Source: Dehalococcoidia bacterium (lineage in GTDB: Bacteria > Chloroflexota > Dehalococcoidia > Plut-88900). Taken from it: a stretch of DNA of 64,000 nucleotides. The DNA is taken from the NCBI GenBank assembly GCA_965207225.1, contig CBDBLV010000005.1, positions 512,001 through 576,000 on the forward strand. Reading direction: 5' to 3'. Below the pieces are notes generated by a model. That model did not search any database and had not been told where the DNA came from. It worked only from the letters and a program-made list of their open reading frames with translations. Both the position numbers and the translations under genes were made by a program. Each line of letters starts with the position of its first letter. The first letter of the stretch is position 1. Shown piece after piece: positions 12,937-63,363 of the stretch.

Positions 12937-13370
12937 ACGGCCAGGTCGTAGTGGATGCGAGTTTGGTCTTCAAATGGCTGGTGAAGGAAGAATTAACTGA
13001 GGAAGCCACTTCTCTCAGGAGATCTTGGGTTGAGCAAGATGTAACCCTCATTGCTCCATACTTCATGCTCGCCGAAGTCACTAATATTCTCCACCGTCGG
13101 GTTGTCAAGGGAGAGATCACTTTGCAGACTGGGACTGACCTGATTGACAAGCTAATCGATATGGACATCCAGCTCGTAGAGACTCACCACCTCCACCACC
13201 GAGCCCTCGAGCTCGCCTCCCAGCTAAATCAGGGCGCCGCCTACGACTCCCACTACCTCGCCCTCGCCGAGACCCTCGGCTGCGATCTCTGGACCGCCGA
13301 CCAGCGACTCCAACGCACCTCCTCCTCCCTTTCCCCGGCAGTCCACTGGCTCGGTGAGCTTATATCTTGA
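12933..13370 (+). CDS. vapC: PIN-domain toxin
   Basis: VVVDASLVFKW, AEVTN, YDSHYLALAE, LWTAD. Confidence 0.9.
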   Translation: MNGQVVVDASLVFKWLVKEELTEEATSLRRSWVEQDVTLIAPYFMLAEVTNILHRRVVKGEITLQTGTDLIDKLIDMDIQLVETHHLHHRALELASQLNQGAAYDSHYLALAETLGCDLWTADQRLQRTSSSLSPAVHWLGELIS

Positions 13371-14662
13371 AACTCGAAATCCACACTTTCACTGTCGATA
13401 ATGCACAATTCGCCCCCGAGACCCGCCTCTCCGAACACACCCTCCACATAGACCGCCAGTCCGTCATAGACCTGGTCTCCCAGGACGAACACTTCCGGAA
13501 CGTCGAACTCCACCTCGTCCACCCCGGCGAACACATCCGCCTCATCAACGTCCTCGACGTCATCGAACCCCGACACAAACCCTCCGGCCCCGCCAGGATC
13601 TTCCCCGGCCTCCTCGGCCCCCCGACACCCGTGGGCTCCGGCCGCACCGACCGCCTCACTAACCCCCTGGTCGTCGTATGCAGCGAGCCCATGACCGACG
13701 AACCCGTCTACTGGCGAGATTCCATCATGGACATGACCGGCCCCCTGGCCCCGTACAACACATTCCGTAACAACCACCTCCTCGTCCTTGAACTGAACCC
13801 CCGGCTGCTCGAAGAATCCACCGATGAGCGTGCCTCCGCCCTCAACAGCCACGCCTACGGAGCGGGCCACGTCCAGGAATACAATCACGCCGCCCGTATG
13901 GCAGGATTCAGAGTAGCCGAATACCTCTCACGCTCGGCTAACGGACCGGCTACCGACATCGTGGACACCTACCAGCTCACCCAATCCAACTCCCGACTCC
14001 CCAGGGTCGTTTTTGCCTGTCAGCTGGTCCTCCACAAGGTATACGGTGAAATCTTCGGCTGGCAGCCGACTCTTCTCCACCCCAATGAGCTGTTCGACGG
14101 CGCAGTCTACAACCCCTTCAACCCGCCCGCCTGCGGACGGGAGACCACCTACTACCTGCAAAACCACCCGGTTGTCCGCTGCCTGTACGATCTGCACAAC
14201 AGGCAGATTGACTTCGCAGGCGTCCTCCTCCAGCGGGCTCAGGTCCTCAGCCAGGACGACAAAGACCGCACCACCGACTACTCCCTGAAACTCCTCCAAA
14301 TGCTGCGCACCGACGGCCTTGTCCTCACCTGGTCCGGCTCCGGTAACCCCGGCGTCGACACCATGATGCTCGCAGCCAAGGCCGAGAAGGCGGGCATCAA
14401 GACCACCGTCGTCAACTCGGAGATGTCAAAGTACCCCGGCGATACCGGCATCACCTTCTTCCCCCCCGAAGCCGACGCCGTTGTCTGCGCCGGGAACTAC
14501 GAAGAGGAAATCGACCTGCCTCGCATCGACCACGTCATCGGCGGCTCGACCCTCGGCGCCCCTCCCCTCGACCCCCGGGGCCCCATGACCCTCTCCCTCC
14601 GCTATCTCCTCGGCGCCACCAACGTCACCGGCGCCAACACCCTCTCCAGCATCTCCTATTGA
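13367..14662 (+). CDS. glycine/sarcosine/betaine reductase component B subunit-like protein, paralog 3
   Basis: LDVIEPRHK, HPNELFDG, GSGNPGVD, ADAVVCAGNY. TTG start overlaps the vapC stop. Confidence 0.85.
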   Translation: MKLEIHTFTVDNAQFAPETRLSEHTLHIDRQSVIDLVSQDEHFRNVELHLVHPGEHIRLINVLDVIEPRHKPSGPARIFPGLLGPPTPVGSGRTDRLTNPLVVVCSEPMTDEPVYWRDSIMDMTGPLAPYNTFRNNHLLVLELNPRLLEESTDERASALNSHAYGAGHVQEYNHAARMAGFRVAEYLSRSANGPATDIVDTYQLTQSNSRLPRVVFACQLVLHKVYGEIFGWQPTLLHPNELFDGAVYNPFNPPACGRETTYYLQNHPVVRCLYDLHNRQIDFAGVLLQRAQVLSQDDKDRTTDYSLKLLQMLRTDGLVLTWSGSGNPGVDTMMLAAKAEKAGIKTTVVNSEMSKYPGDTGITFFPPEADAVVCAGNYEEEIDLPRIDHVIGGSTLGAPPLDPRGPMTLSLRYLLGATNVTGANTLSSISY

Positions 14663-14668
14663 CCAGAG

Positions 14669-15376
14669 TTATGTCTGCGATTTGTTAAGAAGTTCGGGGT
14701 CTCGCACAGTCCTGAATGTCAGTGACAAACGACGTTTCCGACCTCTCCGCCCACCAGGAGTAAGCTCGCTCTTACGAGGAGCGATCCCATGCTGCCAAAC
14801 ATGACGCGCATCTTTGGTCAAAAATGTGCACGACCCTTTTGGAAGCAGTGCTGGTGATTTGTCCTTCCAGTTCTCTGAAAAGTCCATCTCCCAGTCGTCC
14901 AATAGGGAAATCATGCATACAGTGCTGCCAAACCCTGGATGGTCAATATGTGTGGCTATCCCCTGCCCCGGCTCGTATTCATTCACAATGACTTGCTCCG
15001 GCACCCGATCAAATAGGCCAGTTTCGTCATACAGCCTTCTCGAGAGCGCGGCAAGCCACGTGGGTAACGGGCCTACACGCATGTCCGAGGTTATGGCTTT
15101 TGCCTTGTAGTCGTATAACCAACCGTAGTGTTGTACCCGACGCCGTAAATCCTCTCGCCACATATCTTCGGCAGCATCCACCTGCTTCACACATACGGCC
15201 TGTTCTTCAGGCGTCAGGAAACCCTCCCAAATTCTGAGTCCCGGGACGAGAGCTACATGCTGTAAACCCGTAAGACCGCTCACCTCACGATTGATGTGGC
15301 GCCCTGCTATAAGGATGTCAGGATCCATCTCTAGTAAGGGCAACTGGTTGCTCATGCCAAAGCCTCCTATTTTCAT
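14669..15376 (-). CDS. AlkB-family 2OG-Fe(II) dioxygenase
   Basis: RRVQHYG, VNEYEPGQGIATHID (HxD), WQHGI, RRLSLTFR. Confidence 0.88.
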   Translation of the reverse strand: MKIGGFGMSNQLPLLEMDPDILIAGRHINREVSGLTGLQHVALVPGLRIWEGFLTPEEQAVCVKQVDAAEDMWREDLRRRVQHYGWLYDYKAKAITSDMRVGPLPTWLAALSRRLYDETGLFDRVPEQVIVNEYEPGQGIATHIDHPGFGSTVCMISLLDDWEMDFSENWKDKSPALLPKGSCTFLTKDARHVWQHGIAPRKSELTPGGRRGRKRRLSLTFRTVRDPELLNKSQT

Positions 15377-16140
15377 CCTAGGTGCATCAAAGCAATTTTA
15401 GCACGCTTAGAGTCGTTTATTGGGGTTGTCGCTACTTCTACGTCTTCCAGTTCTATCTTTGCAATCTGCAAACTCTCTCGCAAAAGATCCCACCCCCTCT
15501 GGAAATCCATTGACCAATTCTTGGCGTCAACTGCCACTACAGTGCAATTGGACTTGATGTCCATCATTTTGCTGGTATGTATGATGATTTGCGTGTAGGC
15601 ACGAATGGCGTCGGAATAGTTGGACTGTGCTAGTACATGGCCAAATGTAACTATGTAATCCGACCCTTCCGGGCGATGTCGTCGAGTTGCACGCCACAGA
15701 GATTGGAGGTCGTAACAATAGTGCAAATCCGGGTAATCGAGTATGACCTTACTCAGGCGCCTCTTGATATCTGTGGCTAGGCGAATCACCTCGGGATTAT
15801 GATCGAATCCGTACATTTCCAAATTGTTAACTCCCGTGCCAGCCTCTTTGGCCCAATCCACTAATGCCCAAGAGAATTCGCCGGCGCCACAGCCAACGTC
15901 AATGTGCACATTGTGTCTGCTGCGTATTTTCAGTTGACGTAAAACCTCAGAATAGCGGCGATAACGGTAGTGTGGATGGCCATCAATACCTTCTCCGACG
16001 AAGGAGTCTGTATACTGCACCACCTCCCTGAAGCAAGCGTCTTTCGGCAATACGTGTGAGCGCATTTGAGAGGAGCGAGATATGCAAAGCTCTTTCATAA
16101 TCTCTCGTATCACGCCTTGATAGTGATCCTTAACTGACAC
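15373..16140 (-). CDS. putative class I SAM-dependent methyltransferase
   Basis: HIDVGCGAG motif I followed by MYGFD; lower-GC DNA; ATGA overlap with the AlkB gene. Confidence 0.6.
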   Translation of the reverse strand: MSVKDHYQGVIREIMKELCISRSSQMRSHVLPKDACFREVVQYTDSFVGEGIDGHPHYRYRRYSEVLRQLKIRSRHNVHIDVGCGAGEFSWALVDWAKEAGTGVNNLEMYGFDHNPEVIRLATDIKRRLSKVILDYPDLHYCYDLQSLWRATRRHRPEGSDYIVTFGHVLAQSNYSDAIRAYTQIIIHTSKMMDIKSNCTVVAVDAKNWSMDFQRGWDLLRESLQIAKIELEDVEVATTPINDSKRAKIALMHLG

Positions 16141-16322
16141 GTTTTCAAAACCTCCGGGTCCCTGTGCCTGACATGAGTAACTGTAGCTCTATAGCTCACT
16201 GGCCAGCAGTCATTTTATCAAGGCTATTCTAGCTCGGATTAAGTGGATGCTCTCTTAATCCGAGGGTGGCCCACCCCCGATACCCGTCACCCAACTCCCC
16301 CAAAACCCGTGCCAAAAACCCC

Positions 16323-16350
16323 TTGACTTCTATTACACCCGTGCTACACT
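16323..16350 (+). promoter_or_regulatory. sigma70-like promoter with extended -10
   Basis: TTGACT-N16-TACACT, with TG at the extended -10 position. Confidence 0.65.
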
Positions 16351-16356
16351 GTTTCG

Positions 16357-16845
16357 CAGTTCGAACTGATATTCAAAAATCCAAGGAGGAACCAAAAATC
16401 CAGGGAAGCCCTGAGACCCGACCCGAGAACTCAACCCCCCGGCCCACCCCAACGGCCCTCGCGCAGGCCCGAGGCACAAGCTGGGGACGTAATCCCCTCA
16501 ACACGGGTCCCGTGTCCCCTTCCCTGACCATCCAGGCGATGGAAGGTCCACAACATTAACCGGCACGGCCCTCATATAGGAGCCCTGCCGAAAAACCTCG
16601 GGCTATTACGCCCTTGGAAAAATCTCCCCCGTCGTTCCCTTCGGAGATACCCGTTAACCCAGCGACGGCAGCGAGAAAACACCCACCCACCCCTCCGAGT
16701 GGGTCGGGAAAACTGAAAAACTGGTGGCAGAGACGCCCTCAGGCGAGAACCCCTCGCTTGTCTGCCACGTGACACAGGAACACGGGGCTGAACCAGGCTG
16801 GCCTCCCGCCCCCTGAAACTGAGTCCCGGACCTTCCATCGCCGAC
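16357..16845 (+). ncRNA. candidate large structured ncRNA, family not recognised
   Basis: Directly downstream of a promoter with no credible CDS. 15-bp perfect long-range helix (16535-16549 with 16828-16842), an 8-bp closing helix (16401-16408 with 16519-16526), many internal hairpins and A-rich linkers. Confidence 0.58.
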
Positions 16846-16915
16846 CCCCTCCAAAACCCAACAGAAAAGAATGCAAACCCAAACCCCAAAACCGCATAAC
16901 TCCTCCCTCTTCCCT

Positions 16916-17032
16916 AGTATTGAACTAGAGGCAGAGGCTGGCGCTTCAGCGCCAGCCTCTGCCTCTGTTCTTCTCTCCCCCTCTCCCTTAAGGGCCCTAA
17001 GGGAGAGGGGGATCAAGGGGGAGAGGGTTCCC
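16916..17032 (+). repeat. variable-stem double-hairpin repeat, copy 2
   Basis: Same flanks as copy 1; stem GAGGCAGAGGCTGGCGCT / AGCGCCAGCCTCTGCCTC. Confidence 0.92.
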
Positions 17033-17198
17033 TTCCCGCCCCCGCACCACGCGAAATCTCCAGAAATCCCTTCAGGCGTCATTCAATCAAACCAGCTACG
17101 AGTTCAATCAATGTTCAATCAAATTTATCCCCCCCAAACCTCCCTTCCCGTTGGCATCGCCTCAACCCTTTGCCCGGCGCAGAGCGCCCCATTATTCC

Positions 17199-17227
17199 TT
17201 GACTTTTCCCCCTCCCTCTGGTACCTT
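17199..17227 (+). promoter_or_regulatory. sigma70-like promoter of the fbp operon
   Basis: TTGACT-N17-TACCTT, with extended TG. Confidence 0.55.
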
Positions 17228-17373
17228 TCCAACCGATGTGAATCCCCTGAAAGCGCACCCGTGCTTCAAGGGATTTTTTACTGTAGGCGGCAGTCCAACC
17301 ACATGGCGGACAGGGCCTGCCGCCGACAAAAACCTGACGGTTCACCACTGACGGTGGGGAAGGCTGGCGTAAC

Positions 17374-18552
17374 ATGAAACTGACCCTTTCAGTCATAAAG
17401 GCGGACGTGGGCTCCATCGGCGGGCACACTAAGCCCTCGGAGCGCATGATGGAAGCAGTCCGCTCCGACGTCCGACAGGCCAAGAGCAAGGGCCTCATCA
17501 TCGATGGATTCGTCTCCCACACGGGAGACGATATCGCGATACTCATGTCCCACACCCGTGGCCCTGACGACACCGATGTCCACCAGTTCGCCTGGGACAG
17601 CTTTATCGGTGCCACCGGCATCGCCCAGGACACCGGCCTATACGGCGCAGGCCAGGATCTCCTCGTCGACGCCCCATCCAGCAACGTCCGGGGTGCTGGC
17701 CCCGCCGTCGCCGAGCTTGAGTTTGAGCACGACCCCGTCAAGACCAACAAGGTCCGCCCCGCCGAGTCCTTCTGCGTCTTCGCCGCCGACAAGTGCGGCC
17801 CCGGTGCCTACAACCTCCCCATCTTCCTCGCCTTCGCCGACCCCATGTACTGCGCGGGCCTCATGCTCCCCAAGATGATCCAGGGCTTCAGGTTCCGCAT
17901 CATCGACATGGATAACGTCGGCGGTGACAGCATCATCGAGCTCAACGCCCCCGAGGACTACTACAAGATCGCCATCCTCCTCCGTGACAACGAGCGCTTC
18001 GCCATTGAGTCCATATATTCCAGGACCTTCGACGAGCCCGCCGTCGCCATTTCCGCCCAGCGACTCCACAACATCGCCGGAACATACACCGGCAAGGACG
18101 ACCCCGTGGCCATCGTCCGCAACCAGGGCGTATTCCCCGCCCCCGAGGAGATCCTCTCTCCCTTCGGCAAGGCTCACTTTGTCGGCGGCGACGCCCGCGG
18201 CTCCCACGTCATGCCCCTCATGCCCGTCGCCATAAACACCGCCGTCACCGGCATCTACTGTCTCCCCCTCGTCTCCTGCATGGGCTTCTCCATCGACTCC
18301 GACGGCCGCTTCTCCGAGTCCACCATCGACATGTTCGATAACGTTGCTTGGGACTCAGTCCGCTTCCGCGCCCAGGAGAAGGCCGCCGAGATGAGGTCCC
18401 AGGGCTGGTCCGGCGCTGCCATGCTCCCCTACACGGAGCTCGAATACAGCGGCTTCCGCACCGTCGTCGAAGATCTCGTCGGCCGATTCGCCATCCAGAA
18501 CGGCCAGAAGTCCGCCGAAGAGGCCGCGGCAACCATGAAGTCGGTGGGCTAG
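17374..18552 (+). CDS. fbp: fructose-1,6-bisphosphate aldolase/phosphatase (class V)
   Basis: TLSVIKADVGSIGGH, GLYGAGQDLL, YTGKDDP (Schiff-base Lys). Confidence 0.93.
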   Translation: MKLTLSVIKADVGSIGGHTKPSERMMEAVRSDVRQAKSKGLIIDGFVSHTGDDIAILMSHTRGPDDTDVHQFAWDSFIGATGIAQDTGLYGAGQDLLVDAPSSNVRGAGPAVAELEFEHDPVKTNKVRPAESFCVFAADKCGPGAYNLPIFLAFADPMYCAGLMLPKMIQGFRFRIIDMDNVGGDSIIELNAPEDYYKIAILLRDNERFAIESIYSRTFDEPAVAISAQRLHNIAGTYTGKDDPVAIVRNQGVFPAPEEILSPFGKAHFVGGDARGSHVMPLMPVAINTAVTGIYCLPLVSCMGFSIDSDGRFSESTIDMFDNVAWDSVRFRAQEKAAEMRSQGWSGAAMLPYTELEYSGFRTVVEDLVGRFAIQNGQKSAEEAAATMKSVG

Positions 18553-61707: not shown

Positions 61708-63363
61708 ATGCACAAGTCTCCACTAAAAGTAACTCCACTAGGTGGTCTAGGTGAAATAGGAAAGAACATGCTGGCATTGGAATATGACGACGATATCGTC
61801 GTCATAGATGCCGGCGTGATGTTTCCCGGCGAAGACCTCCCGGGAATCGACCTCGTAATCCCGGACATCTCCTACCTCCTGCTGAATCCTTCCAGCGTTC
61901 GGGGTATCGTTATCACCCACGGCCATGAGGACCATACCGGCGCGCTTCCCTTCATCCTTGACCAGTTGAACGTTCCGGTCTATGCCCCGCGCCTTGCCGA
62001 GGGACTGATCTCCGCCAAGCTCAAGAGTCGCAGCCGGATAAAGGACGCCGATCTCAATGTCGCTACTCCCGGTGTGCCCTTCACCCTAGGCCCGTTCACA
62101 ATCGAGAGCTTCCGAGTCTGCCACAGCATCCCCGACTCCACCGGCTTGATCGTCAGATATCCTGGCGGCACGGTCGTCCACACCGGAGACTTCAAGTTTG
62201 ACCACACCCCCGTCGATGGCCGACCTGCTGATCTCGCCCGACTCGCCCAGCTCGGCAACGAGGGCGTCCAGCTCCTCCTCTCCGATTCCACCTATGCCGA
62301 GGTCCCCGGCTACACCCCCTCCGAGCAAACCGTGAGCGGTGCCCTGCGCCAGATTATGGGCGAGGCCCAGGGGCGGGTCATCATTGCCACCTTTGCCTCC
62401 CTCGTCTCCCGCGTTCAGCAGGTCATAGATTCCGCCGTTGCCAATGGACGGAAGGTCTGCATTGAGGGCCGCAGCATGGTTGAGAACGTCCAGCTCTCCA
62501 ATAATCTCGGCTATCTCGATGTCCCCGAGGGCGTTCTGGTCAGCCTCCCCGAGGCCCAAAAGCTCCCTCCCCAACAGGTCGCCATCGTGCTCACCGGTAC
62601 CCAGGGAGAGCCCTCCTCCGCCCTCACCAGGATCGCCAATGGTGAGCACAAACACATCGAAATCGAGACCGGTGACACCGTAGTCATGTCGGCTACACCT
62701 ATCCCCGGCAACCAGGCCCTTATTGGCAAGACCATCGATAAGCTGTTCCGGCTAGGTGCAGACGTTCTCTACGGCCGCATCAAGGAAGTCCACGTGCGCG
62801 GCCATGCCAGCCAGGAAGAGCTAAAGCTCATGCTTGGCCTCACCCGACCCCAATTCTTCGTCCCGGTCCACGGCGAACGGCGGCACCTCGTTGCCCACTC
62901 CAGGCTGGCCCAGTCCATGGGCGTTGCCGAGGAGAACACCTTCGTGCTGGACAACGGCGACGTCCTGGAGATCTCAGGAGAGTCCGCCCATGTCTCGGAT
63001 CGGGTACAGGCAGGTCCCGTATACCTTGATGGCAGTGGCCGCTGGTCCCTCGAAAGCGAGGTCCTCAAGGACCGCAGGAAGTTGGCCAGGTACGGCTTTG
63101 TTATAATTTCATTGAGTTTTGATAGCGAGACCGGCACAGTTTACGGAGACCCGGAAATCGTGACCCAGGGCTTTGCTGACACCTCCGAGACACCTGCCCT
63201 CATCGAAGGCACCCGCAGAGTAGTTATAGAAACCCTTGACCGGCTCAACGGCACCCTCACGGAAGCTAATTTGAAGTCCAGCGTTAAGTCCGCTTTGAAG
63301 AAATACTATCAACAAGAGACCAAGCGTCGCCCCATAATCCTTCCGATTGTTGTGGAGGGATAG
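61708..63363 (+). CDS. rnj: ribonuclease J
   Basis: LGGLGEIGKN, THGHEDH, HTGDFK, PVHGE. Confidence 0.95.
   Translation: MHKSPLKVTPLGGLGEIGKNMLALEYDDDIVVIDAGVMFPGEDLPGIDLVIPDISYLLLNPSSVRGIVITHGHEDHTGALPFILDQLNVPVYAPRLAEGLISAKLKSRSRIKDADLNVATPGVPFTLGPFTIESFRVCHSIPDSTGLIVRYPGGTVVHTGDFKFDHTPVDGRPADLARLAQLGNEGVQLLLSDSTYAEVPGYTPSEQTVSGALRQIMGEAQGRVIIATFASLVSRVQQVIDSAVANGRKVCIEGRSMVENVQLSNNLGYLDVPEGVLVSLPEAQKLPPQQVAIVLTGTQGEPSSALTRIANGEHKHIEIETGDTVVMSATPIPGNQALIGKTIDKLFRLGADVLYGRIKEVHVRGHASQEELKLMLGLTRPQFFVPVHGERRHLVAHSRLAQSMGVAEENTFVLDNGDVLEISGESAHVSDRVQAGPVYLDGSGRWSLESEVLKDRRKLARYGFVIISLSFDSETGTVYGDPEIVTQGFADTSETPALIEGTRRVVIETLDRLNGTLTEANLKSSVKSALKKYYQQETKRRPIILPIVVEG

Follow-up and report, generated by a model that had tools for sequence, protein, structure and literature searches.

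Positions 16323-16900 on the + strand of a 64,000-nt stretch of DNA from a Dehalococcoidia bacterium very probably hold a class I copy of a dispersed, promoter-bearing repeat family that specifies a structured RNA. The whole stretch is called the window here; bare positions are its coordinates, the features described lie on its + strand, and G000 denotes this genome, which is 92% complete. By sequence matching, the family is restricted to one genus of Dehalococcoidia among the genomes searched, with ~50 loci per genome. An earlier note on this DNA had called the region an undescribed multi-domain RNA. That description stands in so far as the element carries a promoter, has several domains, reads on the + strand and lies outside Rfam, but the implied single, novel RNA gene does not, the region being one copy of a modular repeat present at 45-49 loci in the genome. 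Each unit is most likely its own transcription unit acting locally. Taken as a whole, the proposal of genus-restricted, self-promoted structured RNA modules together with this mode of action is somewhat more probable than its opposite; the local action considered by itself is tentative.

The copy in the window is built much as the earlier note had proposed. Its promoter, TTGACT (16323-16328) followed after a 16-nt spacer by a TG-extended TACACT (16345-16350), is the one promoter-like site that a promoter scan finds in 16100-17450, where shuffles give a mean of 0.4. Both proposed closing helices are present, that of domain 1 (CAGGGAAG at 16401-16408 with CTTCCCTG at 16519-16526) and the perfect 15-bp pair around domain 2 (GGCGATGGAAGGTCC at 16535-16549 with GGACCTTCCATCGCC at 16828-16842), referred to below as the P-helix, and every inner stem is recovered in the minimum-free-energy (MFE) fold. 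On the + strand, 16357-16860 has a folding energy of -196.2 kcal/mol; 100 dinucleotide shuffles give -153.2 +/- 5.9 (z -7.24), and none is as low. The - strand of the same region has a folding z of -2.80. The extent first given, 16323-16860, is right at its start but not at its end, as a conserved C/A-rich tail continues to ~16900, some 40 nt further. The features of this copy and of the DNA behind it, all on the + strand, are as follows.

16323-16350: promoter P1, from the promoter scan (TTGACT, 16-nt spacer, TG-TACACT).
16357-16368: palindrome CAGTTCGAACTG, paired in the fold and the predicted 5'-terminal hairpin of the transcript.
16383-16389: Shine-Dalgarno (SD)-like AAGGAGG without a start codon, invariant in the aligned copies.
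16401-16526: domain 1, whose closing helix pairs CAGGGAAG with CTTCCCTG; its middle is a site of variable insertions (fold and alignment).
16535-16549: 5' arm of the P-helix (15 bp), paired in 98.3% of cells of the alignment.
16550-16827: interior of domain 2, class I, one of at least five interchangeable interiors.
16617-16715: two-hairpin core (Pa and Pb, with the invariant loop CCCTCCGA); the match of model R1 at C5:528617-528715 is the same place.
16828-16842: 3' arm of the P-helix, pairing with 16535-16549.
16843-16900: conserved, unstructured, C/A-rich and G-poor tail, alignable among copies.
16926-16977: REP-type variable-stem hairpin (16926-16967, 19-bp stem) and then a T-rich run, terminator-like and belonging to a separate repeat family.
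17374-18552: fructose-1,6-bisphosphatase (FBPase, PF01950, by Pfam), downstream and co-oriented, given for context only.

The repeated nature of the element is evident from its own genome. A blastn search with a 538-nt query returns 77 matching pieces that fall into 45 loci, and profiles of five modules give 52 clusters, 49 of which contain modules of domain 1 or of the P-helix. Full-length copies share 88-94% identity with that in the window. DNA matches are found in all eight other genomes of the genus. Three other genera of the family have none, nor do 29 further families of the class, each represented in the search by one genome. The core model R1 behaves likewise: it matches five of five sampled genomes of the genus as well as this genome, and of 145 others in the class it matches none. 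An invariant 18-mer is found in 39 metagenome contigs, none of which holds the core motif R1, and these are taken as chance matches. A search of public sequencing runs lists 22 with part of 15400-18500, none of them of RNA, and some carry the label sponge or marine metagenome (shares 0.26-0.38). Contigs checked from genomes outside the Dehalococcoidia contain a short match only (L066, L068, L118 and L121) or no module (seven more), and one further contig, L108, from a metagenome-assembled genome of the Dehalococcoidia, holds a real copy. No description of the family was found in the literature on SAR202, sponge, intergenic repeats, mobile promoters and STAB-SD; because it also matches no Rfam family, we call it undescribed.

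Across its copies the unit has a constant order: sigma-70 promoter, 5' hairpin, AAGGAGG, domain 1, domain 2 within the 15-bp helix and C/A-rich tail. In 38 of 41 copies a promoter scoring at least 9/12 stands 29-36 nt before AAGGAG, compared with 61 of 2174 control intergenic 85-mers. These promoters belong to three unrelated families, all near consensus (TTGACA-17-TATCAT, TTGACA-17-TATATT and TTGACT-16-TA(A/C)ACT), and those other than the window's type are followed by GTTCGAAC- or TCGATCGA-type palindromes at the position of the 5' hairpin. In the window the transcript would start at the palindrome 16357-16368, placing AAGGAGG ~26 nt from the predicted start. This heptamer is identical in all 45 aligned copies, in none of which it leads to a start codon, and precedes 226 ORF starts in this genome; the window copy has no ATG, GTG or TTG 3-11 nt downstream of it. 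The closing helix of domain 1 (helix 3) is paired in 95.2% of cells, and domain 1 differs among copies by mid-domain inserts of 40-100 nt. The tail (counted over 16843-16915) contains 32 C, 27 A, 9 T and 5 G. Long-range pairing between AAGGAGG and the tail was considered and rejected, with only 43.9% of cells paired.

That the body of the unit has been selected as RNA is supported by two alignments, A1 with 45 full-length class I copies (42 distinct rows from nine genomes) and A2 with 61 distinct core sequences. The RNAalifold consensus on the full alignment was poor (covariation term -0.83), and the MFE structure of the window copy and hand-set helices were used in its place. In A1, 85.2% of cells of this MFE structure are paired, against 36-43% when the partners are slid, and 110 cells carry double changes, against 29-49 when slid; none of 500 shuffles matches the covariation score. 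Support comes from helices 10, 13, 15, 17, 19 and 20, of which the domain 2 helices 13, 15, 17, 19 and 20 keep their pairing through double changes. In A2, pairing holds in 88.7% of cells; the covariation score of 0.183 drops to 0.118 or less once the partners are slid, and none of 500 shuffles equals it. Both alignments contain many G-U pairs, which the opposite strand would have as A-C mismatches, in agreement with the strand preference that the earlier note had read from the single copy. Compensatory changes and G-U pairs thus support an RNA structure on the + strand, and the direction of the evidence is consistent. The P-helix (helix 11) is different: despite its near-complete pairing it shows zero double changes and is therefore conserved as sequence, which suggests a sequence-specific reader or a recombination anchor.

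What lies within the P-helix varies. The genome contains 31 pairs of P-helix arms, spaced 307-464 nt apart, with interiors of 307-311 nt (14, class I, including that of the window), 330 nt (two), 348-354 nt (four), 367-405 nt (eight by arm pairs, ten by clustering) and 456-464 nt (three). The domain 2 classes are mostly unalignable with one another, and classes IV and V differ in their 5' domain as well. Classes I, IV and V nevertheless have in common a 95-nt core of two hairpins, with the invariant CCCTCCGA loop, and class V carries this core twice in tandem. Domain 2, as judged from these comparisons, is an exchangeable cassette with at least five interiors inside an invariant 15-bp helix. 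An invertible segment was rejected because the interiors all have a single orientation relative to domain 1.

Classes IV and V bear on the question of coding. Their units in G000 (C3:167328-167681, C3:255807-256154, C5:1330718-1331071 and C5:1737119-1737472; C2:179536-179991, C5:1005080-1005543 and C5:1189888-1190351) have AAGGAG, then 5-6 nt, then ATG and an Arg-rich frame (MRRNSLISSRRTRALR...) open for at least 133 codons. Together with the T-poor + strand, which yields long stop-free frames, this might suggest that the unit encodes a small protein and that its apparent structure is a by-product. One copy has ACG for ATG, and the frame through the invariant P-helix differs between IV and V, so the class IV/V frame is probably noncoding. 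The longest stop-free frames in the 45 aligned copies vary in strand, frame and length, the two scanned ORFs overlapping the region in the window are without a Pfam family, as expected from the earlier claim of no credible coding sequence, and the helices are kept by compensatory changes. A protein-coding origin is scarcely credible.

Nor does the element resemble an RNA already catalogued. No Rfam family (release 15) reaches its gathering score in the 64-kb window, and at E<=10 nothing falls inside 16357-16860, the only matches being to miRNA-like models in the hairpin repeats at 16865-17051. Among 20 loci spanning all five classes, the sole Rfam match is to a tRNA. The earlier statement that signatures of RNase P, tmRNA, SRP, 6S, T-box and group II intron are missing is borne out by Rfam, which also gives no match of the element to OLE, GOLLD, HEARO, ROOL, raiA, riboswitch or group I intron families. 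The tRNA gene in question (60.6 bits; L020:1419-1492, which is G000:C2:180638-180711) lies downstream of a class V unit, at a place where the crude gene caller had set the start of a CoA-transferase ORF.

Several other identities were rejected on specific grounds. A riboswitch, T-box or gene-specific leader is at odds with the diversity of the downstream genes, with the variation of domain 2 class at orthologous loci and with the promoter of the gene itself, or a REP hairpin, that intervenes. A sponge of the CsrB/RsmZ type, prompted by GGA motifs in the A-rich linkers, finds no partner in this 92% complete genome, where CsrA (PF02599) and Hfq have 0 matches each. An omega-RNA of TnpB or IscB is not indicated: PF07282 has 0 matches in the same genome and no such nuclease occurs among 42 downstream genes, IscB-specific models not having been searched. 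A miniature inverted-repeat or other non-autonomous transposon would not be expected to have its sole long inverted repeat in the interior, flanked by domain 1 and the tail, and no target-site duplication is seen in two aligned pairs of filled and empty sites.

The genes behind the units are unrelated to one another. They include rpoB, nusA, rpsB, rpsO, recA, gyrB, uvrA, leuS, a Glx-tRNA synthetase and def, and further lgt, folD, ribF, moaA, katG, speH and many amidohydrolases, CoA-transferases and luciferase-like oxygenases (42 of 43 downstream genes were scanned together against Pfam, and FBPase separately). By the count of a crude codon-usage gene caller, the downstream gene is co-oriented with the unit at 43 of 48 loci, and at 18 of 20 lying in co-directional gaps. 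In ~12 of 26 copies a promoter-like site is found by pattern match 10-70 nt past the tail, and several of these have an ATG 5-12 nt beyond the -10 box and no SD, which suggests leaderless mRNAs from several genes behind the elements. Examples of a -10 box followed by ATG without an SD are def, LLM_a and other loci of G000, and the comparison of L011 with G000:C4:291979 onward. In the longest recA ORF, the first ~210 nt (G000:C5:104489-104698) match dispersed repeats of the genus and the Pfam RecA domain begins at residue 84; the true recA start is probably further downstream.

The hairpin that follows the window copy, taken by the earlier note for a variable-stem repeat, is indeed one. REP-type hairpins of this kind have conserved flanks, CTAGAGG ... 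CCTCTGTT, and a T-rich run around a copy-specific palindrome, and number 98 copies with 82 distinct stems in the genome. They occur both upstream of element promoters and downstream of tails, and within 250 nt after the element in 7 of 26 copies. The 19-bp example in the window separates the element from the conserved upstream region of FBPase, which starts near 17185 and is shared even with relatives that have no element there. A second conserved hairpin (16977-17011) follows it, and an intergenic repeat module, CACGCGAAATC ... GTCATTCAATCAAACCAGCTACG, at 17046-17100 recurs at G000:C4:291880-291980, where a relative has an element and this genome the 'empty' site. On the other side of the element, a glycine/sarcosine/betaine reductase component B (+ strand) and a 2-oxoglutarate-Fe(II) oxygenase with a methyltransferase (- strand), at 13367-14662 and 14669-16140, are ordinary context.

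This setting invites the explanation that the element is a mobile promoter with a long 5' leader, P1 driving and stabilising the downstream mRNA as one transcript. The strong co-orientation with the next gene is what such a leader would give, as are the 19 of 26 copies without an intrinsic terminator-like hairpin after the tail, and the 5' hairpin and SD-like box resemble known 5' stabilisers; moreover the element is retained upstream of def in eight of nine genomes, and the reuse of promoter-region families before unrelated genes is documented (PMC3575422). Several of the genes nevertheless keep a predicted promoter of their own between tail and start codon, one of them also at the empty site of a relative, and where ATG lies so close to the -10 box a read-through RNA would hold an internal start lacking an SD. 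The window copy is followed by its terminator-like hairpin, and the orthologous genes of sister species can lack the element (FBPase in 6 of 8 genomes, recA in 6 of 9). A shared transcript of this kind is rather unlikely, and the reading of the units as separate transcription units is preferred.

The 1.5 kb upstream of five genes was checked without bias in the genomes of the genus. Of nine genomes, eight have the element before def, four before rpoB, four before nusA (partial in one of them) and three before recA; before FBPase it is present in two of eight. Copies at rpoB, nusA and recA are limited to G000 and the three genomes nearest to it by gene identity, namely G008, G007 and, at rpoB and nusA only, G005; on these comparisons, the species pattern of copies at a given gene follows relatedness. 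In sequence, domain 2 is 95-97% identical to paralogues within the genome and 89-94.5% to the positional orthologue, at eight of eight loci, and its class can differ between orthologous loci. Occupancy and paralogue similarity together imply that copies are long retained at their loci yet homogenised or exchanged within genomes. The units would thus swap cassettes and homogenise by recombination within each genome. At one locus filled in a relative and empty here, the gene promoter is present in both, and the relative's element takes the place of another module, ~100 nt long, that lies here between a REP unit and that promoter; a second pair of filled and empty sites is likewise a mosaic replacement. 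The intergenic DNA of the genus looks like a mosaic of exchangeable modules. At FBPase, what the closest relative, G008, has in common with this genome is limited to the ~190 nt next to the gene, and its locus has undergone rearrangement or insertion at the position of the element here; 1.3 kb of the G008 DNA farther upstream (L154, G008:C1:270295-271794) is unmatched anywhere in this genome.

High copy number in a single genus, with occupancy varying by species, is also what would be expected of a selfish, non-autonomous mobile element whose RNA structure serves its own spread, for example as a retro-mobile RNA that a reverse transcriptase of the genome copies, or as a guide or scaffold for a recombinase with its gene elsewhere. 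A structure selected on the transcribed strand, an A/C-rich 3' tail and the four reverse-transcriptase genes in the genome would fit such a life. Against it, neither aligned pair of filled and empty sites shows a target-site duplication or a clean insertion. P1 lies upstream of the predicted transcript start, so an RNA copy would not carry the promoter, and the same body is found behind three unrelated promoter modules. No element adjoins any of the four reverse-transcriptase genes, no TnpB-type gene was found in this genome, and there is no Rfam match to group II intron or HEARO. An autonomous copy with a transposase was not found within the 31 P-helix pairs, whose spacing of at most 464 nt leaves no room for a transposase or other long ORF; the single IS481-type transposase found is a mere downstream neighbour of an element. 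Such selfish spread is thus quite unlikely. The reverse-transcriptase ORFs of G000 are C2:158087-158773 (586 aa), C5:1548409-1549095 (586 aa), C5:1553608-1554405 (652 aa) and C5:1671488-1672288 (641 aa), and the two of 586 aa score identically.

Under the preferred reading, P1 would transcribe each unit into 0.5-0.65 kb of non-coding RNA, whose 5' hairpin and AAGGAGG would form a stabiliser like STAB-SD, with a bound 30S subunit blocking RNase J, while the body of the RNA would fold on the + strand. Transcription would terminate in the C-rich tail, by Rho, or at the REP hairpin (16926-16977 in the window), and some of it would continue into the promoter region of the next gene; the tail may act as a Rho loading site or as a ribosome standby site. 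The unit would then act locally, in the manner of a transcription unit set in tandem upstream, and would not be a sensor tied to a particular gene. The P-helix is a plausible site for RNase III and a plausible anchor for the exchange of cassettes. Genes for the enzymes that this mechanism requires, RNase J, Rho and RNase III, are in the genome, that for RNase J within the window (61723-63351; TIGR00649, 561.7 bits, cut-off 400). We infer the transcription, the stabilisation, the mode of termination, the cutting of the P-helix by RNase III and any effect on the neighbouring gene from these features of the DNA.

The strong predicted promoters on nearly all copies, the single-stranded and invariant AAGGAGG, the invariant CCCTCCGA loops and the structure kept across classes would also suit a trans-acting RNA family, whose copies supply abundant RNA that binds 30S via AAGGAGG or SD sequences via CCUCC loops. 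Against such a role, no CsrA or Hfq gene was found in this 92% complete genome, and the swappable domain 2 classes and single-genus range argue against a core cellular function; a purely trans role also leaves the placement just upstream of promoters unexplained. It is therefore highly improbable. A more novel idea is a new class of large (0.5-0.65 kb), multi-copy bacterial RNA with a function of its own, in which a conserved scaffold (AAGGAGG, domain 1, P-helix and a two-hairpin core with an anti-SD-like CCUCC loop) carries the cassettes. It could be a ribosome- or SD/anti-SD-directed trans RNA, or a SINE-like element copied by a reverse transcriptase or recombinase encoded elsewhere, and is unlikely.

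Several points weigh against the preferred reading as a whole. The transcript and its ends are predictions from sequence, the tail is followed by an intrinsic terminator-like hairpin in no more than 7 of 26 copies, and Rho loading on the tail is judged from base composition. As the aligned sequences are close relatives of one another, comparison with shuffles makes the covariation look more significant than it is, and because AAGGAGG and the CCCTCCGA loop are invariant, covariation is uninformative on their pairing or on ribosome binding. The orientation count depends on the crude gene caller, which overlooked one or more real genes in the window and placed some start codons wrongly. Selection against antisense transcription would also give the orientation bias, which is thus no proof of a local function, and both aligned pairs of filled and empty sites are module replacements, with no duplication or clean insertion.

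Promoter-bearing intergenic repeats are roughly 100-200 bp in length, and BOX elements are modular, with the arrangement boxA-boxB-boxC. The family described here resembles Correia/NEMIS, ERIC and BOX in its many intergenic copies, active-looking promoters, modular build, capacity to fold if transcribed and unrelated downstream genes. It differs in being three to five times longer (0.5-0.65 kb), in having no terminal inverted repeats and, in the two pairs aligned, no target-site duplication, and in its covarying multi-helix body with cassettes inside an invariant internal 15-bp helix. Repeats of these kinds upstream of unrelated genes have been described as putative mobile promoters (PMC3575422). 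The two marks of that category are both found here, similar non-coding sequence upstream of unrelated genes in one genome (45-49 loci) and a predicted promoter pointing toward the neighbouring gene (38 of 41 copies, with 43 of 48 co-oriented).

The STAB-SD of cry3A in Bacillus thuringiensis is an SD-like box near the 5' end that initiates no translation but binds 30S and blocks RNase J1 (PMC4113751). The element is alike in having an SD-like box near its predicted 5' end, no start codon and, in the same organism, a gene for the 5'-3' exoribonuclease RNase J. STAB-SD is a short determinant of one mRNA leader, whereas the box of the element heads a structured body of 0.5 kb in ~50 copies, and its stabilising effect would hold by analogy. 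HEARO, the omega-RNA of IscB, is like other large multi-copy RNAs a structured RNA of several hundred nt with many copies per genome and limited taxonomic spread, and the present element is likewise large, structured, multi-copy and taxonomically narrow; it differs in having no Rfam match, no adjacent nuclease ORF and no TnpB domain in the genome, and in having housekeeping and metabolic genes downstream. The long stems of rRNA operons, pnp and phage leaders are RNase III sites. The P-helix, too, is a long perfect helix formed from distant segments that brackets structured RNA, in a genome with an RNase III gene, but it is conserved as sequence and not as pairing alone, and its cleavage would be by analogy with those stems.

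Known promoter-bearing repeats are short and simply structured, whereas this family is several times larger, covarying, cassette-based and equipped with near-consensus promoters, and it precedes core genes, rpoB, nusA, recA and def among them, in a genus of Dehalococcoidia that is uncultured. In practice it should be masked or annotated in these genomes, and not be taken for a regulatory RNA specific to FBPase. Should transcription occur as predicted, ~50 strong promoters in each genome would be devoted to one kind of structured RNA, which would make up a major unannotated share of the transcriptome. The family could represent a new mode of shaping expression near promoters, or a new RNA-based mobile element.

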